From the NCBI GenBank assembly GCA_002368735.1, contig DFEQ01000006.1:1-45637 (forward strand): a stretch of DNA of 45,637 nucleotides, in the 5' to 3' direction. A program made the translations under genes and the position numbers. Origin of the DNA: Christensenella sp. UBA3798 (GTDB taxonomy: Bacteria > Bacillota > Clostridia > Christensenellales > CAG-1252). Shown one piece after another: positions 1,142 through 32,640 of this stretch (positions are counted from its first letter, which is position 1; each line of letters opens with the position of its first letter). The notes beneath the pieces were generated by a model. It was given only the letters and a program-made list of their open reading frames with translations, had not been told where the DNA came from and ran no database searches.

Positions 1142-1155
1142 CGCGTTTACGATAA

Positions 1156-1191
1156 GGGGCTCTCTTCCGAGCGAAGGGGGCCCCTTTTTTT
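1156..1191 (+). terminator. Strong rho-independent terminator after the small lipoprotein gene
   Basis: GGGGCTCTCTTC (1156-1167) pairs with GAAGGGGGCCCC (1173-1184), 12 bp including 2 G-U pairs, around the loop CGAGC. T7 follows at 1185-1191. It starts 15 nt after the stop codon. Confidence 0.8.
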
Positions 1192-1248
1192 ATTTATGTT
1201 TACGCCTATAGGGGCGCATGGAAAATTTATAAGAAAACTTAATAAATA

Positions 1249-1277
1249 TTGACTTCTTCGTGCGTACGCATTAGAAT
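1249..1277 (+). promoter_or_regulatory. Sigma-70/SigA-type promoter of the giant-gene operon
   Basis: TTGACT (1249-1254), a 17-nt spacer, then TAGAAT (1272-1277). An A/T-rich UP-like stretch (ATAAGAAAACTTAATAAATA) lies immediately upstream. The predicted 5' UTR is roughly 55 nt. Confidence 0.6.
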
Positions 1278-1329
1278 ATACCTGTGTTTTTACCTGCGCG
1301 CTATATACGCGTGAGAAAGATGCGGTCTT

Positions 1330-1335
1330 GGAGGA
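1330..1335 (+). promoter_or_regulatory. Shine-Dalgarno site for the giant ORF
   Basis: GGAGGA at 1330-1335, then ATT, then ATG at 1339. Confidence 0.6.
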
Positions 1336-1338
1336 ATT

Positions 1339-1416
1339 ATGACAAAAAATCTTCACACGAAAATTCTGCTTATACTACTGCTTTGCTTCGTGGTCGTGCT
1401 CGTCGCCTTTGCCTGT
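1339..1416 (+). other. Lipoprotein-type signal peptide with AFAC lipobox (Cys26)
   Basis: Basic n-region (K3, H6, K8), a 15-residue hydrophobic core, then V-A-F-A-C with TGT at 1414-1416. This fits the permissive PROSITE-style lipobox pattern. The same AFAC, and the same 11-mer GCCTTTGCCTG, are found in the gene at 299. Confidence 0.6.
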
Positions 1417-4400
1417 GCGCCGAAGTCGTCCACGATCCTCACCGATCCCGATCCGTCGGGAGGGGGAGGCTCCGGCACGTCGGAGACGCGTATAGACGTT
1501 ACGGGAGGTGAGAAGTCGGATTCTTCGGTATCCGAGTTCTTTACATATCTCAAAAAAGCGCTTGCCGTAGACGACGCGAGCGACGCAGTGGCGTTTAAGT
1601 TCGTGACCGAGGACATGACCGTAGTGAAGAGCGAGAAGTCCGTCGATCAGAACGGCAATGAAGTATCCACCCCCAAGACCTTCGATATGTACGCCGAACT
1701 CGCCTGCAAATATGACCGCAGGGACGACTCCAATACCGAATTGCTCTTTGAGCTGCATTCTTCTCTTACGCGCGAGCTCGTGTTTGGCTTCTATTACTAT
1801 ACGGGCGTATTTTACTTGAATATCCCCAACGATGAGGGCGGTGCCGCTACCATCTATATGGACGAGTTCAGCCTGGACGACGTCGTGACCATCCTCGCTA
1901 GCTCGGGCGCCACGGTGTCGGATATCTATAGCGCCGTGATGACCGCCAACGTGCCGATGATCGACGTGAGCGCTATCATCTCGTCTATGCTCAGCGCCGC
2001 GGTCAAGGAGGTCACCAAGACCGAGAAGGATGGCGCCACGCAAATCGTCTTGAAGACCGATTTCAACGCTTCGATCAATGCCTTGCTTGATAAACTCAAA
2101 AGTTTTGACCGAGCCTTGAAGGAGCTCAATATTCGCAGTGCTCTGGAGACCGTGTTCGGCATGTCCTTCACCTCTCTCGTCAATTACAAGTTTGACCAGT
2201 TCACCTGCGACGTGACTTTGAACATCCTGGACGGCAAACTCCTCAGCGTACAGCCCACCCTCGGCTACGGCGGGAAGTTTGCTATGGACCTCTTGATAGA
2301 CAACGTCTACTACGGCGACGACACCAACGCGGTGGGGACCATCGCCTTCCCCGAATTTAACGATTACAGGAAGTTCGGCGTGACCAACCTCGAATTCACC
2401 ATGCACCTCGACCTGGAGAACGCATCGGAAAAGAGCGTTACGATGGATAGCCTGCTCGGCGGCTTCTTCCGCGAGTACTTCGGGCTGACCTCCATGGGCG
2501 CTTTCGGCGAGAGGGTGCTCACTCTCGGCAAGGGCACCATCGGGCTCAACCTCGACGTCAACGCCGAGATCGATTGGAACAAGAACGAAAGGAATTACAT
2601 AGAGATCGAGGTCTTCGAAAGGCTCACTTCGGGCGACAAGCGCCTCGGCACTATCTACTACGTGGGCTCCAAGAGTGCCTTGTACGTGGACTTCTCCGAG
2701 TGCAAACTGCCTAAGTTCGTCTACGAAGGATTGAACCTCGCATCCGTCATCAAACGTTTCGTCGTGGAGACAGTCTCCTCCATGCTCGGCACCGCGGAGG
2801 AAAGCAGCGCCGCGGGCGAAGAGATGCGCGAGGTCATCATCGAGGCGTTTGCTCCGGGCGGCAGTTACCAAGACGCGCTTTCCGCCATCGTGAGAAACGG
2901 CACCTACGAAACAGTCGCCGAAGCAGGCGACGGCGAATACGTCGATCTCACGCTGGACGTCGTCGCTTTGATAAAAAAGCTCGCCAATGCCGTGGCGAAC
3001 AATCTCGAAATGCGCCCCGAGGGCAAGCGTGCGATCGCGCTCACCGTGGATCGTTCGCTCGTTATGGACGTTGTGGGGCACCTTGCCGCGAAGGCAAAGG
3101 AAGGCTTGGATACGGCTGTCAAGAAGCAAACAGAAGCCGCCTCGAACGACGATGAGCTCAAGGAATACGTGTCTACCATCTCCACGCTCGAAGCGGAGAA
3201 ATCTTCGCAAGAAGAAGCGCTCCGAGCCGCTCGCTTGGAGCTGGAAAACGCGAGCAACATGGCGGCGGAGAGAAGGGCGCAGGCGAAGATCGACAACATC
3301 GAAAACGTCCTGCTTCCCAATATCAACATGCAGCTGGAGTATTATCAAAAGCTTTATGACGAGCGCATACAGGCTTTCTCCTCCGACGTGGACGCCGCAC
3401 GCAATAACTTCTATATCTTCGCCTCTCTCTACGACGGGCTAAAGGATAAGTCTTTGACGAGCGGCGACGTCGCTATCCGGAGTATCCGCGTCGAACTGGG
3501 GCTCCTCTCGGTCGGATACGGCATCTACGCCGACGTGGACGTCAAGCTCGCGGAAGACACCCATCTGAAACTGTCGGTGGACCAAGTCTCCATCGGCTAC
3601 GCGCCCGTATTCAACGTGCCCAAGGAGAATTTCGACCCACAAGGCTATTCCACCTTGGAGGAGTTCTCCTCCGTTTCCCTGTCCGCCACCATCGCCCTCG
3701 CGGGTGACAGCGGCTCGCTGAAGGAGCTGAACCTCGGCGACGCGCTCGGCGGCATGATCGGCGAGCTGACCTGCCTCCTCGGCGTAAAGACGGCGAATGA
3801 CGTCGCGCTGTCGGGCGGGATGGATATCAAGGTGGACGCCAACTTGAACTTTGACCCCATCAGCATCTCCGACTATCTGAACGGCGACAACACCAAGCTC
3901 AAACTGAACTCTATCGATCTGGCCGTCAACGTGTACAAGCGTCCCAACGCCACCACCCCCGCCTTGACCGAAGCCAACCGTATGCTCAGCGTGTGGTATT
4001 CGGGCGAGGAGGGCGCTATCTTTGTGGATGCGACGGGCGTATCCATCAGCGATGACGGTGCGACCATCCCCCGCTTTATGTACCGTATGCGCCTCGAAGA
4101 CCTCTTTGCGGGCTCGATCGCCGCGGAGAGCGATATTCCCGCGACCCTTCCCGCCGCCGCTTCGAGCGATTTGTCTATGGAGCAGATCATGGAAGTGGTG
4201 GGCGGAATGTTCGGCGGACTGTACCTCGGCGACGAGATATCGGTCCTGCTTGCGGATAAGCTCATCGCCACCACCCTTTCCATGGTGATGAACGGCAAGA
4301 ATTCGGACAGCGTCATCGACCTCGACTCCTCCAGCAAGGTGTATATCCGCACCGAAGGCGGGCTGGAGATCGGCGCGCATATCGGCTTTGACACCAAGAC

Positions 4401-7400
4401 GTCTGAGGATACCGTCGGATACGTTGACCCCTATATCGAACTGCACGTCGGCGACATCTCCGCCTCGCTCGTCAGGAGGGATATCATTCCCGAAAACGTC
4501 CTCGTGGGCGCCAAGAAGACCTATCCCGACATCACCGAGTTCGACACCGTCTATACGCAGTTTGAGATAGACCTCGGCTACCGCTTTATCAACAACGATT
4601 ACGACTTTACCGACCTCATGGAGGCTTTGTCCGATATGCTCGGCGAGTCTTCTGTCGGCAACCTTTTGGCAAATACCGCGCTGAGCCTCAGCGTCAAAGA
4701 GGAGTTGTTCGGTCATTTCCGCGCGCGTATCAGCGCCAATATGGACTTCTCGGACGGCTTTGAGTTCACCGCGAGGATAGAGCTTTTGAAGGATAACGAC
4801 GTCCTTGCGACCCTCTACTACGAGGGGCTGTACCTCTACGTGGATGCCAGCGGTCTGACCCGCCTTGCTTCGGACGGCGGTCTGAGCGGTCTCAATATTC
4901 CCAAATTCCGCATCCGCGTGTCTAAGCTCGAGTGCGGCTGTACCTGTCCCGACTGCTTGAACGAAGCGTCCTGCGACCACGGCACGAAATGTCTGCCCGG
5001 TTGCGGCTGTGACTGCCACGAAAGCGTCTCCGCTGCGGAGGAGATCTCGGCGGGTAGCTTTATCGGTCTGTTGGATCGCATCGATTTGACAGAGGAAGGC
5101 ATCGCCGTCAAACTTGCGCGCGATAGCTTGTCGAGGGTCTTGACGATCCTCAGCTTTGACGAACTGGGCGAAGCCTTGCCCCATCTGACGCCCTCTTTGA
5201 AGGTGAAGCTCGCGGGCGGCATCGGCATCGGGGCTACCATCGCCTTCGACGACGCGGGTGACAACTATATCGACATCGACATCGGCAAGTTCGGCGTCAA
5301 GTTCGGCAAGGAGAGCCTCGGACTCGTCAAGAGCGAATATCGCGACCTCGACTTTACCATCCTCGATAACGTCTCGGCGGAAGTGTCGGGTCGTATGACC
5401 CTGAATATCGATGCGGGCGCGGCGAATGAAGACGCCGCCGTTGCCGCCGTCGTCAAAGCCCTCGTCAAAGAGGTGGGCTTCGGCGTGCAGGTGGAAAGCG
5501 CCCTCAAGTGGGACCTCTCCTTTGACCTCAAGGCGAACGTCGACCTTTCGCAAGTGGACTTCAACGACGATTCCACCTTTGCCAATATGATCCCGGGTGC
5601 GGAGATATACTTTGCGCTCTACAACAATAACGGCGCGTCGCGAAAGCTGATGCTCCTCATGTATTTTGACGGCAGGACCAAGGACGTGAGCGGCGCTACG
5701 CAGCCCACCGTCTATTTGACCGCTCCCTGGCTCGGCGTGGGCAAGGTCGCTTATAAAGTGGATATCAACGCCCTATCGCAAGACGACGTCTCCGCGGCGG
5801 AGACGGAGGGTGTGGGCGCAGCCGATATCCTCGGCAAGTTCGCCGACCTCATCTTGGACGAAGGGGGCATCGGCGTGGTCTTTACGGGCGAACTGCTCGG
5901 CGAAGTGCTCAACCTCTTGGTGCTTGATGAAGATATCGACTTTGCTTCGATGATAGAGCAGGTAAAGCTCGGCATCGGACTCAACGACGGACTCAGCATC
6001 AACCTCGACGCCTTCCTGACCGGCGCCAAACTCTCCGCCGGCATCACGGGGCTCGGCTTCAATATCGGCGAGAGTATCGACCTCGAAGACCTCGTCTTTG
6101 ACACCGACGACCGCGAGACCGAATACGCGACCGTCGCGTCGGGTACCGACATCAAATTCAACAGTATTTCGGCGGGTATCACCGCTACCTTTGATATCAA
6201 GAGCGCAAGCTTTGAGAACTACGACGCCTCCGAGACCATGAAGAGCATCGTGGACCTCTTTGAACTGGAGGAGGAGGTCAGTTCGCTCGTAGAACAGCTC
6301 TCTCTGTACCTTTCTGCCGACCTGCCCGCGCGCGCTAACGACGCGGCTATGCTCTCGGCGGGCAAACTCATCGTGCGCTTTGACTTCAACTTCTTCGATA
6401 CTTTGGAGTTCGTTTTGCACATCACGACGGGGGATGGTGACGAAGTCGCCACCGTCATGTATCACGGCATAAACGACCTCATCAACGGCGAGGAAGACGT
6501 TCTCTATCTCGAATTGCCCATCATCGGCATCCCCAAGACCAAGGTGGTGGGAACGAAGATCTCCTCTTACGTGGCGAGCTTGACCGAGACCGCCGTCGCT
6601 TCTCAGGAGGAACTCACGAAACTCCCGTGCGGTTGCAGTTGCGACGCGTGTTTGGCGGCGGGTACTTGCGGCAAGAGCGCCGGCAGCCTGACCTGCGCCA
6701 TCTCCTGCGATTGCACCTGCCATCTGCCCGACCTCGATTGCGGCTGTATGAACCCCGCCTGTAAGATCGCGGGCAGCTGCTATCACACCGACGAGACTCT
6801 CGGGGAAGAGGTGCCCAACGAAGGTTGCACCTGTCCCATACATAACGGTGTCACCATCATCGACCGCTTGAACGAGATCGTCGATCACGTGGTGCTGGAC
6901 GGCTCCACGGGTCTCATCGGCGTGGTGACTAAGGGCAACGCCCTCGCGACCATTGCTTCCATGCTCTCGTTGAAAATAGTCCTGCCCGAGCTGGTGATGA
7001 GCGCCAAAGTCAACGTGCGCGATCTCGGCGCGGTGGTGGGCATCACGGGCTTCGAGGACGAAGAGGTCACCTTTGACCTCGCGGTGGACGTGGGCGACCT
7101 CTTGATAGAATTCAAGAAGCGCGACCTCATCTCGGGGACGGAGGCGTACCAAGATTGGCGCACCTTGCAGTTCGGCTTTATGCTCGACGCGGACGTCGCC
7201 TTCAAGATGGACGGCACCTACGCGGAGTATCTGACCGACTATATCTCGGAGAACGTTGCGGGCGAATCCATGAAGGTCGTCGTGGGCAACAATACCACCG
7301 AGGACAAGGTGGAAGTCGCGCTCGGATTGGAAGTTGCGGCAAACGTCGCTTTGGACTACGACGATACCGTCAAGAACTTTGTGCATCCCGGGGTGGAACT

Positions 7401-28400: not shown

Positions 28401-31400
28401 CACGGTCTATCGCAAGATAACCGTACCCGACGACGTCGTCGTGGAGGTGAATCCCTATCAAGTATCGCTCCCCGCTACCTTGACGGTGAACGTGGGCGGC
28501 GCAGTCAAGTATAATTCCGCGACGGGCAAGTACGAGGCTCTGCCCGTATCCGTCTGCGGCTGCGAGAGCTGCGTTGGCTACTGCGGTACCGTTGACCCCG
28601 TCACGGGAGAACTCACCTTGACCGACGATAACTGCACCTGCGCAAAGTGCAAGTCTTACCTCGTCACCTTGAAGGCGGATTGGAGCAAGACGACCATCGA
28701 CTACTCCTATCCCGTCGTGAATCAGCTTGAAGGCAACTACATGGTCGTTGCGGAAAGGGTCAGCATCGGCAACCGGAACTGCGGCTATCAGGAGTGCAAC
28801 GTGAAGGTGGTCGTCCTCAATAAGAGGGTGCAGTCCATCTCGGTAGAGGAATTCGACATCGACCCGTACGACTATCGCACGCTCCCCTCGTCCACCAACG
28901 TGACCTTCCTTGACAATACCTCGGGCGAACTGCCTCTCGCGGCGAATATCGCAAGCGCCGTCAAGGACGCCTCCAATACCAATACCAGCTTCTACCAAGG
29001 CGGCAAATATACCGTCAAGGCATACCTCGGCGATAGGGTGGGCGGCTATCAAGAATTCAACATCACCTTGAACGTCAAGGATAGGACGATAGCGAAACTC
29101 GAGATAGACGGCGCCATCGTGGCGGGCGAAGAGGACGCTACGATGGATATCAAGCCCTACGCTGACGGCGGCGTGACCAAGCGTCCCGACAAGATGATAA
29201 CGGCGGTATTTACAGACGGCTCCAAGGCGGAACTCAAGGCGCTGTGGAACAGCATCCACATCGAGTACACCTTCGAGGGCGGCTATCAAGAGGCGCTCGT
29301 GCTGCTCGTAGGCAACGCCGAGGGCGGATACCAGAAGGTGCCCGTAAACGTCAGGAACCTCAAAGCCGTGGCGACTTCCGCCACCGCAGAGGATGGCTTC
29401 CTCTACAATACCTTTATGGAAAGGAGCGGTCTCCCTGACAAGGTGGTCGTGACCTTTACCGAGGACAGTTACCTGTCCGTTATGACTCTCGCAGTCGTCG
29501 AATGGGCGGAGAGCGGCGTCATCGACGACGAGACCCGCACCTACGTGACGATGGCAAAGATTGGCGACGACGTCGCGGGCTATCAATGGGTCAAGGTGGT
29601 ATTGCCACTTGCCGAGATAGAGCTGCGCGCGGTGCTCGGCGCGAAGTATGAGATAGACGCCTACGACGACCTTGCCTTCTCGGAGGACGGCAGGTTGCTC
29701 AGCGCAAGCGGCGGCTACTTCACCGTAAGCGGACAGATCGGCGAAGAACTCACGCAGTCCTTGTACGTCAAGCTGCTCGAAACCCCTGTCTATACCTTTG
29801 AGGGCGCCGAGGGCGAAAATGCGCTCTTTATCAAGATCGCGGTGGGCAACGCGCTCACGGGATACTTCTCCGAGACCTCTACGGGCGAAGAGATAAAGCT
29901 CACCTTGACTGTCAGACCTCGCGTCGTCAGGGCGCTCATCGCACCCGACGGCGAGACCGAGCTCAAGGAGTACTTCACGGGGCTCAAACTCGATCCCTAC
30001 GATATGCCGAATATCGTGACGGGCGGCAAGATAGCCGCGCTCATCGACGGCGGCGCCGTAGTGGATATCGACATATTCTCGGTAAGCTACAAGAAGGCGG
30101 GAGACAGTGACTACAAGAACTACGTCTCCTTCACGGGCGGCAGCTACGATATGAAGATAGTTGTGGGCAACGCCCTGCATGGCACGCAGGAGATGATATA
30201 CTCTATCACCGTCGCGCCCAAGATCATCGCCTCGGTGGACGAACTCACCGACAAGGTGGTAGACCCCTACGAATATCGCCTGCCCAAGGAGGTCAACGTG
30301 ACCTTCACTGACGGCGGCAGGGCTAAGCTCTCGGTGGTGTATAGGACCTTGAACGAGGCGGGCAAGAAGGTGCCCTTCGGCGATGAGAACATCGTGTATT
30401 CGGGCGGCTCCTTCGACGTCTATGCCATCTTTGACCTCCACGGCTTCCAGCAGGAATACTTGTTTAAGCTCGTGGTCAATCAGAGCTTCGTGGATTCTAT
30501 CGGTCCCGGCATGCTCATCGAGATAGACCAGCTGGACGGCACCCTCACCTTGCTTGACGAGATAGAGCTCATCATCTCGGGCGAATCTGTCCGCAAGAGC
30601 GCCGATAAGGGCGATTGGACGATCACCTCCGGCGCGGACGGCAAGTATCACATCACCCTCCCCGAGGGTGGCGACCCGGGCAGTTGGGACCTCTCCGAGG
30701 TGGACCTCGGCTATATGGGCGGCACCTATTACGCCTACTACAGATACGGCAATGCCGCGGCGGGATATCAGCTCGTGCAGGTGCCTGTGGTCGTATCCGA
30801 AAAGGTCATCGACTACGACAAACTGCAATACGTCGCTTCCTCGAGTGCGGGCAGTATGACCCTCGCATCCTTCGGCAATCCGAGGGAGATAACGGCTGCC
30901 GTGGGCGAATACTTCGAGCTCCCGACGGATCTGTGGGTGGTCTTTAAAGACGGCACGCGCATGCAGAAGCACGTCGAGTGGGACGGCTCCAAGGTGGACC
31001 TCACGAGGACGGGAAGGTACGAGATCACCACCACCGTGCTCGAGCAGACCATCACCGCTTACCTCACCATCACGGAGAGCAGGAAGGTGATGGGCGACGA
31101 CGTCTTGGACGTCGTGGTCGCTTCGCGCGGCGGAGTATACAGCTTGCCCACGACCATCCGTCAGAATATCTACCTGCGCACTACGTCGGGCAGCTACAAC
31201 CTCGCGCCCGAACCTGCGCCCGCCAAGGCGATCGTTTGGGATAGAAAGCCCTCCACCGCGGTGGAAGATAAGTACTACTTGGTGGGTACCGTATCCAACG
31301 GAACCTTCTCCTGGACGAGGACCATCACCCTCTACGTGTACAGCACTTACGTGAGCTACGTCGTATCGACGTGCGAAAGCAGGGCTCTCGGCACCGCGGC

Positions 31401-32457
31401 AGGTGCGACCGAGGCGACGGTGGAGGTGGACGCCATTCTCTCGCCGTCAAGTCTCCCCGAGATCAACGTGATGGTCTACGAGGGCGAGGCGGCTACGATG
31501 AGAAGGACGGCGGCAAGGTGGTACTACGTGAACGGTGAAGGCGAACGCTTGGAGCTCTCCGCCATAGATACCACCATCGCGGGCGCGAAATACGTGCTCG
31601 TAGGCGTAATAGTGGATCGCGCGGGCAATGAGATAACCTATTCGAGCGGCGAAGCGCTCCGCTTCACCATCACGATAGACGAGAACGTGGACCTCAAAGA
31701 GAAGTATCACGTGGAGGAAGGCGCCAATGTCTACAGCTATCAGGACGAAGATCTGACCCACGTCAAGCTCACCGTCGACCGCGGCGTAAGTATCACCGCC
31801 ATCGAATACTTTGACGAAAAGGGTTCGCGCGTAGCCGGCGTTACGTACGTGAACGGCGAAGTGCCGCCCCTTGCGGAGAATACCTATCCCGTTGACGCAG
31901 GCGTCTATACCGCCCGCGTGACCCTCTCGGGCTACGGCAAGGAGGAAAGGGTGGAGGTAGCCTATATCGTGAAGCAAAAGGAGATCGCCGCGAACGAAAT
32001 AGTGGTCATCAACTTGAAGCAAGCCTACAAGGAGGATGCGACCTACGTCGTCAGCTACGGCACCAAGTACGGAGTGCCTCTTGAGGCGACCTACGAGGTC
32101 TTGGAAGGCGAAGGAGCCCAACTCCGAGACGGTATCCCGGCAGCGGTCGGCAAGTACCTCGTCACCATCCGCGTGGTGAGCAAGAACTACAAGAATGCGG
32201 TGGACGAAAACGGGGAGGAGATGCTCCGCACCGCGATACTCGAAGTGGTGAATTATTACACCGTGACCTTTAAGAAGGGCGAGAACGTCATCGGCTCCGA
32301 AAGGGTAGAGGAGGGCGACACCGTCAAGTCGCCGCAAGAGATGGGCGATGGCTTCCTCTACTGGTACGAGGAAGGCGGGGACGACAGCGAAAGCTTCAAT
32401 CTGAACCGGGCGATCACGAAGAACTACGTGCTCGTGGCAAAGTACCAAAGCGAATGA
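1339..32457 (+). CDS. Giant surface lipoprotein, 10,372 aa. Order: novel repeat-module rod with Cys-knot arrays, ~20 Big_4-like Ig repeats, MBG-like segments and a Flg_new-like C-terminus.
   Basis: A single ATG-to-TGA frame of 31,119 nt, as given in the ORF track. Sequence character is coherent throughout and an SD site and promoter lie upstream. The signal peptide MTKNLHTKILLILLLCFVVVLVAFAC-APKSS is followed by a Gly/Ser/Pro tether (DPDPSGGGGSGTSE). All other frames here contain only short or low-complexity ORFs. Confidence 0.95.
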   Translation: MTKNLHTKILLILLLCFVVVLVAFACAPKSSTILTDPDPSGGGGSGTSETRIDVTGGEKSDSSVSEFFTYLKKALAVDDASDAVAFKFVTEDMTVVKSEKSVDQNGNEVSTPKTFDMYAELACKYDRRDDSNTELLFELHSSLTRELVFGFYYYTGVFYLNIPNDEGGAATIYMDEFSLDDVVTILASSGATVSDIYSAVMTANVPMIDVSAIISSMLSAAVKEVTKTEKDGATQIVLKTDFNASINALLDKLKSFDRALKELNIRSALETVFGMSFTSLVNYKFDQFTCDVTLNILDGKLLSVQPTLGYGGKFAMDLLIDNVYYGDDTNAVGTIAFPEFNDYRKFGVTNLEFTMHLDLENASEKSVTMDSLLGGFFREYFGLTSMGAFGERVLTLGKGTIGLNLDVNAEIDWNKNERNYIEIEVFERLTSGDKRLGTIYYVGSKSALYVDFSECKLPKFVYEGLNLASVIKRFVVETVSSMLGTAEESSAAGEEMREVIIEAFAPGGSYQDALSAIVRNGTYETVAEAGDGEYVDLTLDVVALIKKLANAVANNLEMRPEGKRAIALTVDRSLVMDVVGHLAAKAKEGLDTAVKKQTEAASNDDELKEYVSTISTLEAEKSSQEEALRAARLELENASNMAAERRAQAKIDNIENVLLPNINMQLEYYQKLYDERIQAFSSDVDAARNNFYIFASLYDGLKDKSLTSGDVAIRSIRVELGLLSVGYGIYADVDVKLAEDTHLKLSVDQVSIGYAPVFNVPKENFDPQGYSTLEEFSSVSLSATIALAGDSGSLKELNLGDALGGMIGELTCLLGVKTANDVALSGGMDIKVDANLNFDPISISDYLNGDNTKLKLNSIDLAVNVYKRPNATTPALTEANRMLSVWYSGEEGAIFVDATGVSISDDGATIPRFMYRMRLEDLFAGSIAAESDIPATLPAAASSDLSMEQIMEVVGGMFGGLYLGDEISVLLADKLIATTLSMVMNGKNSDSVIDLDSSSKVYIRTEGGLEIGAHIGFDTKTSEDTVGYVDPYIELHVGDISASLVRRDIIPENVLVGAKKTYPDITEFDTVYTQFEIDLGYRFINNDYDFTDLMEALSDMLGESSVGNLLANTALSLSVKEELFGHFRARISANMDFSDGFEFTARIELLKDNDVLATLYYEGLYLYVDASGLTRLASDGGLSGLNIPKFRIRVSKLECGCTCPDCLNEASCDHGTKCLPGCGCDCHESVSAAEEISAGSFIGLLDRIDLTEEGIAVKLARDSLSRVLTILSFDELGEALPHLTPSLKVKLAGGIGIGATIAFDDAGDNYIDIDIGKFGVKFGKESLGLVKSEYRDLDFTILDNVSAEVSGRMTLNIDAGAANEDAAVAAVVKALVKEVGFGVQVESALKWDLSFDLKANVDLSQVDFNDDSTFANMIPGAEIYFALYNNNGASRKLMLLMYFDGRTKDVSGATQPTVYLTAPWLGVGKVAYKVDINALSQDDVSAAETEGVGAADILGKFADLILDEGGIGVVFTGELLGEVLNLLVLDEDIDFASMIEQVKLGIGLNDGLSINLDAFLTGAKLSAGITGLGFNIGESIDLEDLVFDTDDRETEYATVASGTDIKFNSISAGITATFDIKSASFENYDASETMKSIVDLFELEEEVSSLVEQLSLYLSADLPARANDAAMLSAGKLIVRFDFNFFDTLEFVLHITTGDGDEVATVMYHGINDLINGEEDVLYLELPIIGIPKTKVVGTKISSYVASLTETAVASQEELTKLPCGCSCDACLAAGTCGKSAGSLTCAISCDCTCHLPDLDCGCMNPACKIAGSCYHTDETLGEEVPNEGCTCPIHNGVTIIDRLNEIVDHVVLDGSTGLIGVVTKGNALATIASMLSLKIVLPELVMSAKVNVRDLGAVVGITGFEDEEVTFDLAVDVGDLLIEFKKRDLISGTEAYQDWRTLQFGFMLDADVAFKMDGTYAEYLTDYISENVAGESMKVVVGNNTTEDKVEVALGLEVAANVALDYDDTVKNFVHPGVELWLSFYAKTGEDELYDRTSSLISIYYNSSEVTDGASHEVLYFAGAAYGAESAVKITDIGVYDLVMELLLPMIPRAGIVSAAEADDAEAQAVGGLLSGILGLTVTREDGLLISADGGALKLALSLLNKELGDIFPATEGVRVAFGEEGLSAKLVFNEASMLTVEVADADIFFNKSFVEFEPMRDKIAGENGITVGAAPMSADDAFHLSGKFSVEAETGVTVDESGNPIDEFFGSTEGGYLGALKFLLRSDAENKVNYTVEADVSVYGLKLDEMKLNAFDLPSVMALVGKALAGVKAEATVVVRDNNADDEVIFAIYYTFDEIDSMYVVVPAFDLRLRVEEVLPLKSLLASIVSDRVDSGETAASEAVESAAVGGFQAKDIFKLVDKIALSNEALTIDLSEQILSRLLLMEGIEITLPEVRTTLTLGQLVAATGGVDQGLSVKVISSLIPQFNAEIRLGDFDITLEKGSLDLLAPHAAVFGRMDTYSTLDSLQAKVEFEADLYYGFGENQTNSDGNAWAFEKLLEDIDLNLNIGIIDQLKGHYKLTVSATANVAEGADSLYGLEIYIVLYSVSKDGEDNDVYAKQFSVYYGKGVLGLNFYDLLGVEPFELELDLGSMISGAGSSAEQEDAGEEAQSVTKKLEGFISELSGIIKLYVKEKSAVLELSGNVLHTALVALGYDNYFPITAEGVTNLNTAAMNGLTEGDYTVVLTYDGLTSESESFTYHHAYRRDLYDLRALNLTGGDVYAIGYQGEGVSGVFYSEAKWSDLFDLDLKAQTITWVSADKHSELFESLPLGEYEITIIKTGGRASAGFKMEKRLSSYTSKDGLHLTGRTVSMIEIKRDGVTLHTLVPTEVELTPGKELIGDYFAINAYGGLLDLELGTEGILAKVRLKDDTYLNLSITDLDIDMSGGTVDRIDKNGEAEQYTSNIRSLYFDFSVDLSVNTSKGYKLDVDESIGNLLDNVLGGIFEGRDINFYSEKDSELTYTLDVQANVKLAGKAIDLAHSELAVTVKEGTREILTVYYVGTQGANGVLYIAIPYFDLRLKVDEVDFVSKIRSLLGENSVSAAEEDDAESGPSVTKMIASMLLGVNVYDAYLDTAVEHGESRFYGMQALFAKKALNVLLELAGFSGFTLPELEEGDETSYLKLYIDKAEDKLLEARLAFDISKATSMTLTVYQPKVQLNGKMRYDNNLGTFMSISEAGSLTLGLSASFILDNDKDNNIDVASIVNMLVEDAHADKLIVKTEASTAIYTFKVSLNFSLQGVTESLLGEEGGMSVNQMLRSMLKNLYAHITLDRTLEGVDDRLVEAYFYNSCLYLDLSSIGMPKAAIPMDISALIPADEEPAAAEQESPLVCGCLNPDCIAHADSHPDATHPCRNGIGGMYDGCECRYCDPDPDPKFVEAFNVFYTSRGILAKMETELFAATLQALGIKATLDVSLNARLSLDDGLSATAVFYGVDKDGEKAHTSVTLSVAKPTVVLGGVIEEMIEDTSDYGYLNDLRNVNVDFTIEIDTALNGSSVAGRYLIDGFIADLFRYGAGDKQSELPVNLMHDIKGKISIHVAANIDFADVNRSEILLQVYHRREGEAAEEWITVFYGGAYDLIVCLPIVDEAFNMTFNVNLAKFLGDDTAKMIRDLPTTLSDLIYGALGSEAGAVAAAEGSTPDSMLGLAFSAIQNIGFQAAGKITVNAARTVVEDFSEYMLGSIVTLGDMQYFEVFADLLSREIGLKAGIKNNAEGPTNTFALTLKDYSFSLVKKDLEFDKTQYNTLEDYEFLYVKASGKIDYDLPDGVYDIGGLIRSIAEGVEIPVTFEGLTGEFEVVVQMNICVEELKRSELRVDVIWNDNYVLQAYMDVLRQEIYISMPWFDVQKFLIKGVDTSFLFDLLPSAKGDEVSEAAGSLGFDLASSAAAKYVTLLGKVVDGILITNDESSRGLTMTINSNFVETLLSEFASSLKLELPIAFDTSFISVERNTLDFTFNLKNPYHAASASAPVGYIKGKLALENCGFTNVNIRPDNTQNVTEFTPLLDYEEDDPLILENISVKTELFFDAHLLEQQLNMNDLMMYIFGDGFDLKTEKVDAIFRLEVQGTFNIRRIARSELLVNLYMNSPDPAQPGKYIERLFIRGYYVGLDQAVYIDAPLLGLYGIKATGLNLESLIGGASSGEESGESLTELDCGCKCASCLDGGKCYGLVDGVLTRLCASDCTCSHCQVPGCTCRNAVCVATGSCYDEGGVKRCASECGCHLLSCGCDNEECFFNRGCVGAIKHCEEDCLCSCCTVPSCHCTNVECVENGSCYRADGSKICALDCACSCSVLKCGCSDVDCQARGTCYVDGSRTCDGKECSCACTALSDGCNCKTCADKGGCVAQDGSVRCEKGCTCEHCTLPCGCTDPYCVAAGGCGLNGMYCTDNCTCTCHGIAPCDCNNPECVEKGCIVSYRNAYKVQASGAKAYYDIARKVYYLAENADVIVDEDALVIETATSRPKVVAIDAIHREGCDLDKCTCYTDTYRFNCFCKDPVCIKNGKCVKCYRLIKDEKGNDKVISICYCDKNFVKKIEGLKAAEVTSVVFKNGETPVATLPSKAEWSAYMTIVDGLVSLNDANDNILALEGYKWTVYVETTSGTYDFEYKLGSGPVTNDSCKCHYNVLACFCTDPEHIRSGVCPGDCEYCNGDCHKYRSDKYAEAFAQMKITPAGISFRTTNSFLSTIFYVFSGNTISNVDVPRISVDFALNYITRRAVFDLENVNQSSVKKVVFQGKHEIGGLYESLTLTTAEEIASYMEIGEGTVTFYDSNVNLGELKDYAWFVTFYGDLDQNLGTVDYAMYTGETQGFLSHLALRADVVVEQYKDGAYTGEESTFGVSFGGIELTSGKSTFTILDAQGRTDPVSGDPLPADFATYQTFEKLQKITVQTDLHIEIHPEDTNVELGPMLNTLFPGIDTLMQIIVDTADWTENTEITFAVQVALDLNDLEKTQLMLTVTETRAIGDKLLAFIYYDGEAATPTLYINLPILGVQGTYFENVTIFDFYTEAQPALDCGCGEDKKCKNVLCIDNGSCYDEYGVRICDGETCGCDCAYFSCGCNCGDCVKADACDGTKCGAGCTCSHHSVAAADDETALVCGCTRADCIAYGSCGPDCTYDCDGSCHYVTTSATPLLCGCTDPICLMRGSCYEACKNCKNGRCHDKENAALLFHSGLSVSDRIYGYLSHVISLTVSDAAGFQIEAEPSLITTLLVALGRDVDISALDGVGSILVGFKVDANSDIAINAQVDLGDTGAHLRLTADNIKIDLNKNLLEVPSTEVVGSLQNYTRMNLKSYVNISLSGELNITTQQAVLDLGRTVSAVLGAQSEFELSFEDGPVSLGYTIAANVSLESVDITGLIAGKTFDAKKVLETGEALVEIIDLKHNKTFLSIYLKDGVAYVDLGILASAPPMKIDLANLIKFTEEDYVSTAEGEEKKDSVYDVSYTLDLPEVVTIGKMYHYVGGSSPEFLVALKGYEVTSAIIVNDATGVKTTIADKDALAKYFTFEYAANNANHRYVNTILSMAATKEVRELARDGENYYTVYLITEGGVASFSLKVATADAYVTGGDRTMALVAGMLGNVTFKFDEFMVGLNKNLMKILEEYLGISLNAPAVDAAMFFGKKDAETVYIGATIGLKNGEGKGVDVDFRLGNFKIGIGKAYLLDELDVNNDLMRTHVTLVDGHNEIVEGAYSDIESIDTAYASLTAEVTFAASGDASVPADRNSKIFDPDGAVFTFGDTFRDAIGNVLVNLGIDKSLNGTYRVTLKGYLKTLDFEMLGLSDIEAYLKVEEKTGESTYGEIFTIYYADNYIYLNFNPERFPYMTLPATCIRLDSALDYWTGKDEEVEVSAAESDLSIASFVRLIGGATVGNGIIALHLSENFVGGILELVSPEFNNISLLIDETNVALDVMQGEISFDLKTSGEFKPADYVIYGRDSYAKAEKVSNDEAYIAVYNSGAFKGMEGDYLLCAGVGGGEVEIPFNVSDLKREYLFTDENVWNVMLTVEDGRFAIPSGKFEAGSYHVVFTMTDGTNVTTKAGDAIAGGAYVELVGLVAANVTSVKVTMNYLRLPIDASGLSGANGSFTTLTSLTFKQVEASKVSGGLELADFAKAGGANAVTIKKAAVGALGGEHYYAYFFADGALAVEKAWLSVSDDTTIELSHISMDNLRKIVFVRDYSDETEAPEFDSYAILSATDEAIFLDYKGNVYTNYTAQQSFDMSFTVRDLVFAVAQPDVGLYQKNKETTYSYNYSTGAVTATAGLDLANYANWQEQVFYLATSLEISADFATTGEELAGGYELFGNDSVGLGSVIDQVIGILRMQEGLNEVITLKVEIKIFAEDPYLSEALFTFSVKTTDKYGADPQTVNKPSITVYYKGMGEGNKSYLYIDASRYFLGNFKVEADIVTPILDLFDIGSKNDNYSSLDQEVLLCGCTNPECVLYGCIKAENGRYVVRCKGTGCTCKHCVLSCGCVDEKCLLNGGCYDADGVRICDGETCSCDCSLLECGCTNPGCIEHKSCYDEEGNLMCLVCNSVYCQLAGRCLFDDDCEFREQGYRDPCTCSHCRLKCGCTDKACLDNHSCYRDGVLLCDANCDCDCSDNAVIVEPEKESVPFSKYLPYMDNILSAVQIGNKMSTIVLNPNVFNNILLMLGYKTYLCDENLAYIRAEVHATTAEGMKDTFIKIAAKKDDVYDVSVKLTGFKAQAVVKKDATQFASFTSAYNFASSVPNYESYPLVEEMELHFATTVDISLSGGTETLPIGLNDLLGSMLGLEAEDVATLTVDNGTVQTGLDLRIHMEMFLNLQHSRQTELLLEISQVNKATGATTLSLGVYYLNAEETAYVTLPVFGLSGLKITGLDLSDILANVFEIRLWSDIRNGTRESASAAEEETSIKNALWQLMGMDLGDDESLPNVILDYIRAINESGEEYEEKYDHKAKFVLSMGNSKAGVGLNLSFIMLLMDMLKVDLPSQLVSIFETYPGGFTAEAYYDGADNASLTGWSIGANIYFKKNEASERDEIGTSADNKEWMGLTLKIHDLEAFVGENESLTRYARTDAEKSAVIVMPDAVKASENDAKANYKFTPKRYRGYANTNYDTYKSLTRYSNIMEIDVLNVNLVGEMVFDLKNQTDSEYKSNQTLKFFNALIEEMLGLEAGSFNVVRHVENTWTFTVNLDLNLNFEDFSKTQLKFQLIMNDGISSDLTLAAIYYDGASLSEDGGKLYLDVADLGLIKVRATGVNLEQALSQVLDVDLSSGNLSILKDAFGVQSLGELITNKIKESKNVTAQEENEQEEEETAGAASIDYAADLKIVLEALALQGRTQTPYKLSMKVNGALIERLVGAFGWDENIVGKAMERVGLPEDFSATIGFTLDEGLKDIGVDIVAPDTLSGGGSRSNDISVKLTTFKYDYTSSAESMFAANQFDDYSALPMGGSIGLANHNGESWVGMLVESVLNGLYPPAASVDSGGNETLTADALRVKLTHNTHYTDKNAVLVTDQKRNIVIQLSRDDSEGKFPHSLRGTVFDVMTDFTETPGLTDIAQNAVEIYSENYLAIADLLKNIAQMFVGHIDRISVYYVDGNLKLRVGFKISIFGLSLLTWDENDGLDFTFNVYHMDISDMMSGKAKKSKYDEPDEIKSDGDDDETITLEDIEAAKEHPVTKVTLNLGYGHIDDTTGTTMEKSKQDTAEGLAGENPATVSNLRIDFDALVIRELTQMLNSAALSLGKSHSTVASRATYGTYQMMLGMIKDAIKGLIKKLGDNTVVNALASVAGSAAAALADNVLGDQVIHLLAKLLPFVEPAKGDSCYLMVEFDTNNKGSGKVLIRKALFRACNAKTGEYSQIVLTNAGIRLGVVDETRVTIEFNGKTERTLTDVFNVDLDGNGVADYLQDLPKEASVYYKPGTTNADDKPDDVNIVWTDSTFVIDPTGGVTTPIARPKDGSDKIATSYNIIGTILNYNKYVPLNVPYSAVRLVKYATVAGETTPLIKGEHIELPMRITPDMVKTLDTYLPKVIMVYMTDGYGENGLYYTFDGREEGGNVVKWDYSGVSDSYDGGSYILNLTFGDGNTKNYHIEVPIEVIPQKLSAINAFAYSDDENNKIIGNSLTYEAGEKPTLPDRVYAEFGTLGSKLYEIRWVESEFTSKYAGATYYTSAYIGNSEIGYHLYENIPIVFKSKVIAGYKFVWQTEDGYTEEGQDLVFDPYEINEKDGKPAALSLHSYPRYVRFCFEGNVDATGAPIYEDDYSIVEWNVENVVNSYTGNNSSYAIFRYGDENIGYQYVKVLVTIKEMIFTSSMLKNSEMKIITDVDPMYLYVDREKGENRVMVVGLGSSKVYNYDPTDLKNYPTSVTVYYGTEENEKRTFSGDDVSWDTSGIVVSYKGGVQYAKLRIGNEAGGYQVINVPITIEDRTISAIDLSMIRDKYEFDPYLEDVGDSKFYPTNPYGATKTAIVVFSAQTAQAYPMTWDLSGLEQSYKGGTSTVYARVGSDVAGWQMVPFTVVVKERIIDKMQIEAFVFDPYDSSVDPLVVDSEDSPYPTSAIAVFKDDSTHRFSNLKWDISEVYKIWNYKGGEGFVVVKFGNEYGGYQTYKVPVKVECREIATVDINEGNIITFDPYGGIDPRLEENYYKKVNVTFSSGEKGVVDVIWDLSNVINNYRGYKGGEHSVSIRVGNSVCGYQNIGGITVKILNREIVREIIGSSIGTQKIDVYADIDLATTVTVTFSDGSQRTMPVTWINENYRTDINAPDFPNWNEEKDIDEQTDFTADARIGDSIGGYQIVPGVPVRVYKRVAQKLFIDNVQWSKTEDGKMVIDYANHYFVFDPYDGKMELPSTVQIFFDDGTDTYMKAVWDTSNVKMDLAGGVYGGFNSETTGAILRLGNARTGHIEIEFMVVVKNREVVVKGSDTAHPVAQIFTYDTTTGEKGELLSSIVNDPYLGSGFPNTVYLEFKSTGIPALTRSEGMAKTIGNWNIEYVLDADGNNVPVRASIKLGSAKAGYEIYYFDVTTVYRKITVPDDVVVEVNPYQVSLPATLTVNVGGAVKYNSATGKYEALPVSVCGCESCVGYCGTVDPVTGELTLTDDNCTCAKCKSYLVTLKADWSKTTIDYSYPVVNQLEGNYMVVAERVSIGNRNCGYQECNVKVVVLNKRVQSISVEEFDIDPYDYRTLPSSTNVTFLDNTSGELPLAANIASAVKDASNTNTSFYQGGKYTVKAYLGDRVGGYQEFNITLNVKDRTIAKLEIDGAIVAGEEDATMDIKPYADGGVTKRPDKMITAVFTDGSKAELKALWNSIHIEYTFEGGYQEALVLLVGNAEGGYQKVPVNVRNLKAVATSATAEDGFLYNTFMERSGLPDKVVVTFTEDSYLSVMTLAVVEWAESGVIDDETRTYVTMAKIGDDVAGYQWVKVVLPLAEIELRAVLGAKYEIDAYDDLAFSEDGRLLSASGGYFTVSGQIGEELTQSLYVKLLETPVYTFEGAEGENALFIKIAVGNALTGYFSETSTGEEIKLTLTVRPRVVRALIAPDGETELKEYFTGLKLDPYDMPNIVTGGKIAALIDGGAVVDIDIFSVSYKKAGDSDYKNYVSFTGGSYDMKIVVGNALHGTQEMIYSITVAPKIIASVDELTDKVVDPYEYRLPKEVNVTFTDGGRAKLSVVYRTLNEAGKKVPFGDENIVYSGGSFDVYAIFDLHGFQQEYLFKLVVNQSFVDSIGPGMLIEIDQLDGTLTLLDEIELIISGESVRKSADKGDWTITSGADGKYHITLPEGGDPGSWDLSEVDLGYMGGTYYAYYRYGNAAAGYQLVQVPVVVSEKVIDYDKLQYVASSSAGSMTLASFGNPREITAAVGEYFELPTDLWVVFKDGTRMQKHVEWDGSKVDLTRTGRYEITTTVLEQTITAYLTITESRKVMGDDVLDVVVASRGGVYSLPTTIRQNIYLRTTSGSYNLAPEPAPAKAIVWDRKPSTAVEDKYYLVGTVSNGTFSWTRTITLYVYSTYVSYVVSTCESRALGTAAGATEATVEVDAILSPSSLPEINVMVYEGEAATMRRTAARWYYVNGEGERLELSAIDTTIAGAKYVLVGVIVDRAGNEITYSSGEALRFTITIDENVDLKEKYHVEEGANVYSYQDEDLTHVKLTVDRGVSITAIEYFDEKGSRVAGVTYVNGEVPPLAENTYPVDAGVYTARVTLSGYGKEERVEVAYIVKQKEIAANEIVVINLKQAYKEDATYVVSYGTKYGVPLEATYEVLEGEGAQLRDGIPAAVGKYLVTIRVVSKNYKNAVDENGEEMLRTAILEVVNYYTVTFKKGENVIGSERVEEGDTVKSPQEMGDGFLYWYEEGGDDSESFNLNRAITKNYVLVAKYQSE
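3085..3411 (+). other. Charged alpha-helical, coiled-coil-like insertion (~110 aa)
   Basis: AAKAKEGLDTAVKKQTEAASNDDELKEYVSTISTLEAEKSSQEEALRAARLELENASNMAAERRAQAKIDNIENVLLPNINMQLEYYQKLYDERIQAF. It is rich in E, A, K, R and L, has no Pro or Gly, and is unlike the flanking beta-type sequence. Confidence 0.5.
4933..5019 (+). repeat. Cys knot 1 (9 Cys in 28 aa)
   Basis: CGCTCPDCLNEASCDHGTKCLPGCGCDCH, beginning 39 aa after the YY anchor at 4816. Confidence 0.8.
6628..6843 (+). repeat. Cys knot 2 (two units plus a CTCPIH tail)
   Basis: CGCSCDACLAAGTCGKSAGSLTCAISCDCTCH-LPDLD-CGCMNPACKIAGSCYHTDETLGEEVPNEGCTCPIH, beginning 56 aa after the anchor at 6460. Confidence 0.8.
11455..11568 (+). repeat. Cys knot 3 (His-rich variant)
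   Basis: CGCLNPDCIAHADSHPDATHPCRNGIGGMYDGCECRYC, beginning 45 aa after the anchor at 11320. Confidence 0.75.
13912..14685 (+). repeat. Major tandem array: 7.5 units of a ~33-aa 8-Cys repeat
   Basis: Unit pattern is C.C.(2-4)C.(4-5)C.(5-8)C.(3)C.C.(1-2)C. An example unit is CHCTNVECVENGSCYRADGSKICALDCACSCSVLK. The array covers aa 4192-4449, about one residue in four is Cys, and His recurs at unit ends. Two further Cys clusters follow at 14872-15027 and 15301-15405. Confidence 0.85.
16483..16920 (+). repeat. Cys knot array 5 (about 4 units)
   Basis: CGCGEDKKCKNVLCIDNGSCYDEYGVRICDGETCGCDCAYFSCGCNCGDCVKADACDGTKCGAGCTCSHH ... CGCTRADCIAYGSCGPDCTYDCDGSCH ... CGCTDPICLMRGSCYEACKNCKNGRCH, beginning 42 aa after the anchor at 16357. 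Confidence 0.8.
20713..21210 (+). repeat. Cys knot array 6 (about 5 units)
   Basis: CGCTNPECVLYGC...CTCKHCVLSCGCVDEKCLLNGGCYDADGVRICDGETCSCDCSLLECGCTNPGCIEHKSCYDEEGNLMC...CTCSHCRLKCGCTDKACLDNHSCYRDGVLLCDANCDCDC, beginning 57 aa after the anchor at 20542. Confidence 0.8.
24960..31700 (+). repeat. About 20 tandem Ig-like repeats of Big_4 flavour with a G[ND]..GGYQ signature
   Basis: The repeat reads FDPY...YP..V.V.F.DG.......W(D/N).S.V...Y.GG.Y.......GN..GGYQ...V.V.V..R.I. I located GYQ-type anchors at 25882, 26224, 26581, 26866, 27145, 27418, 27715, 28039, 28375, 28786, 29047, 29329, 29581, 29863, 30184, 30445 and 30766, a period of 84-137 aa. The 'LP..V.V...DG......V.W' theme matches my memory of Pfam Big_4 (PF07532). 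No HMM was run. Confidence 0.65.
28555..28650 (+). repeat. Small Cys knot inserted inside one Ig-like repeat
   Basis: CGCESCVGYCGTVDPVTGELTLTDDNCTCAKC. It sits in the longest Ig-repeat interval (137 aa). Confidence 0.7.
32254..32454 (+). other. Listeria-Bacteroides repeat (Flg_new)-like C-terminal domain
   Basis: YYTVTFKKGENVIGSERVEEGDTVKSPQEMGDGFLYWYEEGGDDSESFNLNRAITKNYVLVAKYQSE. This fits the remembered pattern YTVTF...G......V..G.....P.....GY.F.GWY........F.....I......LYAKW. The stop codon follows directly. There is no LPXTG motif, TM segment or cell-wall-binding tail. Confidence 0.55.
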
Positions 32458-32521
32458 GTCGATAGCGTATAGCGGCAGAGATAAACATGACAGACGCACC
32501 CCGAGGTGCGGAAAACAAATA

Positions 32522-32530
32522 GAGGTAGGA
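32522..32530 (+). promoter_or_regulatory. Shine-Dalgarno region for the second giant ORF
   Basis: GAGGTAGGA at 32522-32530. The GAGG ends 7 nt before the ATG at 32533. Confidence 0.55.
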
Positions 32531-32532
32531 CT

Positions 32533-32640
32533 ATGACTGTAACACAAAGACGGACAAAATGGAAGGCAGGACTCATCATCGCACTGGCGGCGATAATCTT
32601 GTTGACGCTGCTTGCGGTGTCGCTTTCGATAGCGACCGAC
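32533..32640 (+). other. N-terminal signal anchor or uncleaved signal peptide
   Basis: A basic n-region (RRTKWK) is followed by a ~23-residue hydrophobic stretch, AGLIIALAAIILLTLLAVSLSIA. There is no lipobox Cys. Confidence 0.6.

Follow-up and report, generated by a model that had tools for sequence, protein, structure and literature searches.

The window analysed here, 45,637 nucleotides of contig DFEQ01000006.1 from Christensenella sp. UBA3798, holds a gene for a single protein of 10,372 amino acids (aa), referred to below as the giant gene and the giant protein. The gene is confirmed as a real, intact chromosomal gene that is evolutionarily maintained under purifying selection. We propose with moderate confidence that its product acts as an N-terminally lipid-anchored, extended surface fibre or adhesin of this uncultured rumen or gut Clostridia bacterium. 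The protein would be exported by Sec, cut by signal peptidase II before Cys26, and held in the cytoplasmic membrane by an N-terminal lipid anchor. The remaining acidic chain of 10,346 residues would extend through and past the wall as a long modular fibre, by rough estimate about 0.2 micrometre long if each M module (the main repeat described below) contributes about 5 nm and each immunoglobulin (Ig) domain about 4 nm. The proximal two-thirds would be a fixed series of about 20 position-specifically conserved M modules, with compact cysteine (Cys) units between modules serving as rigid knots, either metal-binding (Zn) or disulfide-bonded. The distal fifth would be a stalk of 16 Big_4-like Ig domains, with a Big_4/MBG-like tip as the most likely binding end. 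The giant protein and the product of the gene that follows it, open reading frame (ORF) 2, would cooperate at the surface, for example to attach the cell to particles or other cells or to build up a surface layer. Lipidation, extended shape and binding function are properties that we infer from the sequence.

A preliminary description of this DNA had reported an uninterrupted frame of 10,372 codons, and this is exactly what we find, from the ATG at 1339 to the TGA at 32455-32457 of the forward strand, with zero internal stops. Given the gene's own base composition, so long a stop-free run would arise with a probability of about 1e-166, which makes a chance origin implausible. The remaining two forward frames carry 381 and 318 stops across the same span. 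In each 3-kb bin of the gene, G+C content at codon positions 1, 2 and 3 stays within 0.51-0.58, 0.36-0.43 and 0.76-0.82, and codon periodicity is even along the whole ORF. One antisense frame (window 1375-32643, reverse strand) has only 17 stops, leaving ORFs of 400 to 1,629 aa. These long antisense ORFs are by-products of the G+C-rich third codon positions of the giant gene and not genes in their own right.

The comparison of frames among orthologues that had been suggested earlier also came out in favour of one continuous gene. Five orthologues (46-67% identity) keep single open frames, are collinear with the giant protein, and together span its aa 1-10,360. The frame of the orthologue L016 stops at the homologous position, and a homologue of ORF2 comes next. 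Identity to the orthologues is even along the protein, at 40-75% per 250-aa bin. An independent contig, L017 (ENA ERZ1029115), is 99.0% identical to window 26037-40866. Over the last 6.4 kb of the giant gene the two differ at 35 synonymous, 20 missense and 1 nonsense positions, which puts the dN/dS at about 0.18 (synonymous rate, dS, about 0.024; nonsynonymous rate, dN, about 0.004). The sole indel in the 14.8-kb alignment is 3 nt long and lies inside ORF2. A further independently assembled protein, P0008, is 98.7% identical to giant aa 7,476-9,377. Between them, these two independent assemblies repeat aa 7,476-10,372, and the passage into the following gene as well, with about 99% identity. 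The view of the preliminary description, that this is an intact, selected gene and not a pseudogene, is supported by the orthologue frames and by the dN/dS.

Repeat-driven mis-assembly of the giant gene is very unlikely. Tandem Repeats Finder detected no tandem repeats in the gene, and no DNA repeat within it is longer than 87 nt (at 80% identity); on these grounds we rejected a collapse of repeats. The internal repeats of the protein are only 10-50% identical to each other.

The promoter, Shine-Dalgarno site and lipoprotein signal of the preliminary description were all recovered, as TTGACT-17-TAGAAT, GGAGG and a lipobox with a conserved Cys26. The protein begins MTKNLHTKILLILLLCFVVVLVAFAC and continues APK, with signal peptidase cleavage predicted before Cys26. 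A basic MTKNLHTK is followed by the hydrophobic ILLILLLCFVVVLVAF, giving the n-region and h-region of a signal peptide. The lipobox rule, a PROSITE PS51257-type pattern applied as a regular expression, is satisfied by a match that ends ...LVAFAC26. Cys26 is invariant in all six aligned homologues and in the orthologues L004, L007 and L013. Apart from one marginal stretch, the signal peptide is the sole clear hydrophobic segment of the protein (19-residue Kyte-Doolittle mean >1.8). The mature protein has 10,347 aa, a mass of 1,127 kDa and an isoelectric point of 4.44, and is strongly acidic, with 1,534 Asp and Glu against 832 Lys and Arg. No LPxTG-type motif occurs anywhere in it, and Pfam finds none of the usual anchor domains (SLH, choline-binding, LysM and similar); the candidate anchor is the N-terminal lipobox instead.

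The proximal two-thirds of the giant protein is an array of diverged M modules, detected with profiles that were built from orthologue alignments and then iterated within the family. There are 20-21 copies, each about 240-260 aa long, with E-values of 1e-20 to 1e-70, while the negative controls (shuffled or reversed sequence, and ORF2) gave E >= 0.28. A partial M module at aa ~50-190 precedes the full array. Most modules adjoin the next one directly, at spacings of -17 to +3 aa, and they share a conserved end motif, YY.G...LY.D....G. Paralogous copies within the protein are 10-20% identical, whereas orthologous copies at the same position are 45-70% identical. Module number and order are conserved even in orthologues at 47% identity, which have 15, 15 and 14 modules where the giant protein has 15 in the same span. 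Because orthologous copies are far closer than paralogous ones and their number and order are conserved, the array is ancient and fixed. In this it contrasts with typical adhesin stalks, whose repeats evolve fast and are nearly identical. The helix-rich insert at aa ~480-680 is rich in Ala, Glu, Lys and Leu and shows the lowest orthologue identity of the N-terminal half (32-42%). It may be a coiled coil, which could point to oligomerisation.

An AlphaFold2 (AF2) prediction of aa 1,100-1,900 with four orthologues failed, with a predicted local distance difference test score (pLDDT) of 34. When a single M module was predicted from a multiple sequence alignment of 56 paralogous and orthologous modules, the mean pLDDT rose to 76.9 and the predicted template modelling score was 0.66. 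The model is an alpha+beta structure with long antiparallel strands of 10-16 residues. A Foldseek search with it returned nothing significant in the PDB (best E 0.33, TM-score <= 0.2) and no match in BFVD at E <= 0.001, and the M-module profile had zero matches among PDB sequences. On the strength of this model, the M module is an undescribed family with a predicted fold unmatched in the PDB and BFVD.

The way in which the modules are conserved leads to an alternative role. Individual M modules or Cys knots might dock the ORF2 product, the small lipoprotein encoded upstream or other secreted proteins, so that the giant protein would be a scaffold and not an adhesin, a functional analogue of a cellulosomal scaffoldin or a surface-layer organiser. 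The identities of orthologous and paralogous modules, the fixed number and order of the array and the conserved synteny with two other exported proteins all speak for this, as does the origin from the rumen, a fibre-degrading habitat. Because module conservation is position-specific, we keep a scaffold role under consideration, at a probability that is low but appreciable. No cohesin, dockerin, CBM or SLH domain was found in the giant protein even at lenient Pfam thresholds. A scaffold is compatible with the fibre or adhesin reading, and the two are not mutually exclusive.

Cys residues are distributed in a distinctive pattern. Nine clusters contain 184 of the 205 Cys of the giant protein. Eight of them (aa 1,199-6,624) are placed either in the spaces that separate M modules or overlapping the edge of one, and the ninth (aa 9,073-9,104) lies inside an Ig repeat. 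The underlying unit is about 33-40 aa long, with up to 8 Cys, and follows the pattern L.CGC(T)NP.C...G.CY...G...C...C.C.C. In one aligned stretch (aa 4,600-5,150) all Cys are invariant among orthologues at 52-73% identity. This alignment left out aa 4,192-4,563, and the invariant Cys, at aa 4,655-5,148, are those of the third cluster of the largest Cys-rich region and of most of the next cluster. The CGCTNPxC...GSCY motif is retained in the most distant relatives, P0011 and P0015. These two proteins (NCBI MBO4535304.1 and MEG1509328.1, respectively) are 28-30% identical to the giant protein and combine the motif with M modules; one of them comes from a low-GC Clostridia metagenome-assembled genome (MAG). 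Since they share it, the module-plus-knot architecture predates the rumen clade of close orthologues.

The Cys unit has no family match in Pfam, NCBIfam or the PDB. Cys tends to be excluded from the exported proteins of most Firmicutes, although anaerobes are less strict in this (PMC2823432). Under the reducing conditions of the rumen, coordination of a metal would be at least as plausible as disulfide bonding. The probable role of the units is that of knots, held by metal (Zn) or by disulfide bonds, which would make modules stiffer or tie them together.

Invariant Cys clusters spaced along the protein, and the long amphipathic antiparallel strands of the M-module model, would also suit a conduit or wire. 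The giant protein would then form a bridge-like lipid-transfer groove (AsmA/TamB/VPS13-like) or a chain of metal clusters for extracellular electron or H2-linked transfer to partner cells, and the weak, non-significant Foldseek neighbours of the M module do include LBP, Osh6 and BamA. We consider this highly improbable. Hundreds of residues separate one Cys cluster from another. Neither fold nor sequence comparisons gave a significant match to AsmA/TamB/TULIP proteins or to iron-sulfur or cytochrome motifs, and Pfam matched no AsmA or DUF490-type domain in the giant protein. The lineage is one of spore-formers (SpoIIID is encoded in the homologous contig L002), with no sign of an outer membrane to bridge.

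The distal third is built differently. It opens with a region of about 755 aa that matches no family, whose C-terminal part is among the best-conserved of the whole protein (68-72% identity to L014 and L016 around aa 7,800-8,300). The sixteen Ig repeats that follow share the motif YP..V.V...W D.S...Y.GG...GN..GGYQ. Pfam recognises Big_4 in five stretches of the giant protein (E 9.6e-26), the best at aa 9,850-9,900. MBG_3 is significant in P0009, a 28%-identical relative, at the homologous C-terminal position. The preliminary description saw no FIVAR or GA-type repeats, and Pfam likewise gives no such match even at E <= 5. By eye, the last ~65 aa resembled a Listeria-Bacteroides repeat; we rejected this assignment, as neither Pfam nor NCBIfam supports it.

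The C-terminal end also bears on whether the giant protein could be a contact-dependent polymorphic toxin or an effector-delivery protein. Giant size, a surface location and a long stalk are what such a protein would have. No toxin, LXG, Rhs or pre-toxin domain was found in it with Pfam or NCBIfam, however, and its C-terminal identity to the orthologue declines gradually, from 52 to 42 to 30%. The downstream gene encodes a conserved giant protein and not a small immunity protein. We regard a toxin role as largely excluded and scarcely credible.

Alternatively, the giant protein could be a steric shield or spacer, a long acidic polymer that keeps cells, phages and host factors away. Its net charge of about -700 and its great length would suit this role, and none of its domains with a possible adhesive function scores above threshold. 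There is also a parallel in Staphylococcus aureus, where giant surface proteins that inhibit clumping have been proposed to work in this way. PMC4856396 and PMC6548404 deal with Ebh and other giant surface proteins in the control of clumping. Spacers usually show rapid gain and loss of near-identical repeats, whereas the M repeats are ancient and fixed, and the distal Ig/Big_4/MBG-like end is 40-70% identical to the orthologue. We therefore consider a mere shield improbable.

Several observations weigh against the surface fibre or adhesin that we favour. First, about 95% of the giant protein has no family in Pfam, NCBIfam, PHROGs or the PDB. As a consequence, the functional reading draws solely on architecture. 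Second, none of its candidate adhesive domains reaches a curated threshold: MBG_3 scores E 0.38 and 11.3 bits against a cut-off of 25. Third, the fibrillar adhesins of Gram-positive bacteria are normally oriented the other way round, their adhesive domain being N-terminal and their LPxTG C-terminal (PMC8286594). Fourth, the closer resemblance of orthologous than of paralogous M modules is not expected of a stalk that is only a spacer. Fifth, the AF2 model of the Cys unit is of low confidence. Finally, two homologous frames are broken. The orthologue L001 (59-65% identity) has a single frameshift near aa 1,770, within Cys cluster 2, at L001 7129-7141, after which homology resumes in another frame for 3,390 aa. 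In L017, position 399 reads TAG where window 26435 reads TCG (Ser, aa 8,366), a variant that would remove the last 2,006 aa of the giant protein.

These two lesions, and the fact that the region is split in public gene calls, are the case for an assembly artefact, a decaying pseudogene or an erroneous fusion of several genes. The lesions lie at different sites and neither is shared, and P0008 carries Ser and not a stop at aa 8,366. Each is an error of assembly or a variant of one strain, and neither marks a split that is conserved. The split in L016 has a technical origin. There a 100-N scaffold gap and gene calls on the antisense strand created P0007, an apparent stand-alone homologue of 2,333 aa that we rejected as an artefact, and the public ENA record of L016 (1-7660, reverse strand) has eight antisense "genes" annotated over the true frame. 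With single frames in five orthologues, a low dN/dS and no long DNA repeats, an artefact is largely refuted and is left with a very small probability.

Table 1. Features of the window, by window position, and extent of orthologues, by position in the giant protein.
Feature	Position	Strand	Remarks
Upstream small lipoprotein gene	299..1141	+	~280 aa; no Pfam/NCBIfam family; translation, synteny
Intrinsic terminator of upstream lipoprotein gene	1154..1196	+	Strong; also delimited as 1154-1186; 14-bp stem and T run
Promoter-like site TTGACT-17-TAGAAT	1249..1277	+	Sigma-70-like; 10/12 matches; consensus match only
Shine-Dalgarno GGAGG of giant gene	1330..1334	+	4 nt 5' of ATG
Giant gene	1339..32457	+	10,372 codons, then TGA
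Predicted lipoprotein signal peptide, aa 1-26	1339..1416	+	Lipobox A-F-A-C; Cys26 invariant
M-module array, aa 207-7,274	1957..23160	+	~20 diverged alpha+beta modules of ~250 aa; iterated profiles
Helix-rich insert, aa ~480-680	2779..3375	+	Coiled-coil-like by eye; between first two full M modules
Cys-rich cluster 1	4933..5016	+	9 Cys
Cys-rich cluster 2	6628..6834	+	15 Cys
Cys-rich cluster 3	11455..11568	+	7 Cys
Largest Cys-rich region	13912..15402	+	Three clusters with 61, 10 and 8 Cys; tandem units
Cys-rich cluster	16483..16917	+	31 Cys
Cys-rich cluster	20713..21210	+	36 Cys
Region aa 7,275-8,029	23161..25425	+	~755 aa; no family; Pfam and PDB searches empty
Sixteen tandem Big_4-like Ig repeats, aa 8,030-9,834	25426..30840	+	~85-105 aa each
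7-Cys insert within one Ig repeat	28555..28650	+	
C-terminal end, aa 9,850-10,372	30886..32454	+	Big_4 domain, then weakly MBG_3-like region
Second giant gene, ORF2	32533..45636	+	>= 4,368 aa; runs off window; N-terminal signal or anchor
Orthologue L004	giant aa 1-5,450		67% identity; one open frame
Orthologue L007	giant aa 1-5,333		47% identity; one open frame
Orthologue L013	giant aa 157-5,413		48% identity; one open frame
Orthologue L014	giant aa 1,457-8,494		46-51% identity; 7,198 open codons
Orthologue L016	giant aa 4,632-10,360		52-53% identity; one open frame to stop

The giant gene is paired with a second giant gene, a fact that the preliminary description had overlooked. ORF2 starts 75 nt after the giant-gene stop, and neither a terminator nor a promoter was found in that gap; the two genes are probably co-transcribed. 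In the ORF2 product, Gly, Val, Ala, Thr, Ser and Asn are abundant, and diverged repeats of about 280 aa occupy aa ~1,000-4,000. The product has zero matches in Pfam, NCBIfam and PDB sequences. Paralogy of the giant protein and ORF2 was considered and rejected, as BLASTP gave no hit between them. ORF2 shows a dN/dS of about 0.15 against L017. The giant gene is followed by an orthologue of ORF2 in two other loci, L017 and L016; the one in L016 is 45% identical and was called with a product of 6,394 aa. Because the gene pair is conserved, the two proteins probably act together at the surface.

The upstream lipoprotein begins MKKTICTLLILLLVMGACVGAFAC and continues with K, and has an unusual AFAC lipobox, the same as in the giant protein. 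Its ATG at 299 is our own reading of the start; the mechanical ORF begins with GTG at 146. The gene is syntenic at L001, L002/L003, L004 and L012. Further upstream, at window ~35-75, a hairpin with a T run, AAAAAACTGCTCGG-CAAACA-CCGAGCAGTTTTTTT, resembles a terminator of the gene before the window. The upstream neighbours in L002 are housekeeping genes and SpoIIID, which places the locus on the chromosome of a spore-former lineage. No RNA families or tRNAs were found in the window.

The giant protein has few relatives in protein databases. Searched as a whole against Pfam (strict and lenient), NCBIfam and PHROGs, it matches only Big_4 above threshold; sub-threshold matches are Big_3, MBG_3, RibLong and Invasin_D3. 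Searches of PDB sequences with aa 1-5,000, aa 5,373-10,372, ORF2 and the M-module and Cys-unit profiles gave nothing significant, the best non-significant matches being the pre-SET Zn-cluster region of SUV39H2 (E 0.36) and a palladin Ig domain (E 0.15). A search of 5.8 billion proteins gave five relatives for aa 1-1,500, four for the last 1,500 aa and zero for aa 5,401-6,900. An exhaustive HMMER scan with aa 1,100-2,099 against 1.84 billion representatives returned eight matches. The zero for aa 5,401-6,900 reflects failed gene calling and not absence, because L014 and L016 encode that region. More generally, the near-absence of the family from protein databases is likely due to antisense annotation and the scaffold gap in public records. 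Orthologues of the gene occur in ten species-representative genomes, all of them Clostridia or "Christensenella sp." MAGs, and four of the ten are named for goat, yak or water-buffalo rumen. Further orthologues are found in ENA and JGI metagenomes. The named family members are all annotated as "hypothetical protein, partial [Clostridia bacterium]", and our literature search found no description of the family.

The Staphylococcus protein Ebh, the extracellular matrix-binding protein homologue, has about 10,500 aa and a mass of 1.1 MDa. Like the giant protein, it is a giant Firmicute surface protein made as a single polypeptide with many repeated modules, and the two are near-identical in size. 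The giant protein differs from Ebh in having no FIVAR or GA repeats and in its anchor, which would be an N-terminal lipobox here and is C-terminal, in the membrane or wall, in Ebh. Its repeats are only 10-20% identical, with an unmatched fold, and its Cys-rich inserts have no known counterpart in Ebh. The preliminary description had ranked the giant protein in size with the largest known from bacteria. The likeness to Ebh in size stands; the wider claim is overstated, as West-Roberts et al. 2023 reported predicted bacterial proteins of up to 85,804 aa (bioRxiv 10.1101/2023.11.21.568195). The size of the giant protein equals that of Ebh and is no record. What is new is its content, the undescribed M module and the undescribed Cys unit.

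The same study described proteins of 10,000-30,000 aa from mammalian-gut Clostridia as a class (bioRxiv 10.1101/2023.11.21.568195). The giant protein resembles these in bacterial class, type of habitat, size class and presumed surface-binding role. They carry recognisable RCC1, Listeria-Bacteroides and YG repeats, dockerin and leucine-rich repeats, whereas the giant protein has only Big_4. The full-length Omnitrophota giants of that study cross the membrane many times and contain a DEAD helicase domain of a divergent SecA type; the giant protein shows neither feature, and Pfam finds no SecA match in it. Fibrillar adhesins of the SiiE, Bap and Rib types (Monzon et al. 2021, PMC8286594) share with it a stalk of tandem Ig-like domains that has a surface anchor at one terminus and a candidate binding region at the opposite one. 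The giant protein differs from typical Gram-positive members in its inverted polarity (PMC8286594), and from the group in lacking LPxTG and any curated adhesive domain above threshold, and in that two-thirds of it consists of a different, novel module. The cellulosomal scaffoldins of rumen and soil Clostridia are, like it, very large modular secreted proteins with distinct modules in fixed order; they differ in their cohesin, dockerin, CBM or SLH domains, none of which was detected here.

There are several ways in which the locus matters for this group of bacteria. More than 50 kb of a small genome is devoted to two conserved proteins that are nearly blank in databases. Two new sequence families, the M module and the CGCTNPxC...GxCY Cys unit, are gained with a defined architecture, so that both can be modelled, expressed and searched for. 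The invisibility of the gene in databases has an explanation, in that antisense ORFs were annotated in its place and contig breaks fragment the remainder. The rescue of the M-module structure prediction by a paralogue-enriched alignment (pLDDT 34 to 77) is a further gain. It is tempting to speculate that the locus represents a new class of Gram-positive appendage, a two-gene operon of more than 50 kb with a lipid-anchored fibre, a new fold, metal-binding 8-Cys knots and a separate role for each module, such as docking the ORF2 product or other partners. We regard this idea as tentative and rather unlikely. If true, these uncultured rumen bacteria would possess an extracellular scaffold of a new kind, and not simply another adhesin. 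If cells attach or aggregate in the rumen by means of the giant protein, it would have a bearing on fibre colonisation and on Christensenellales-like partnerships.

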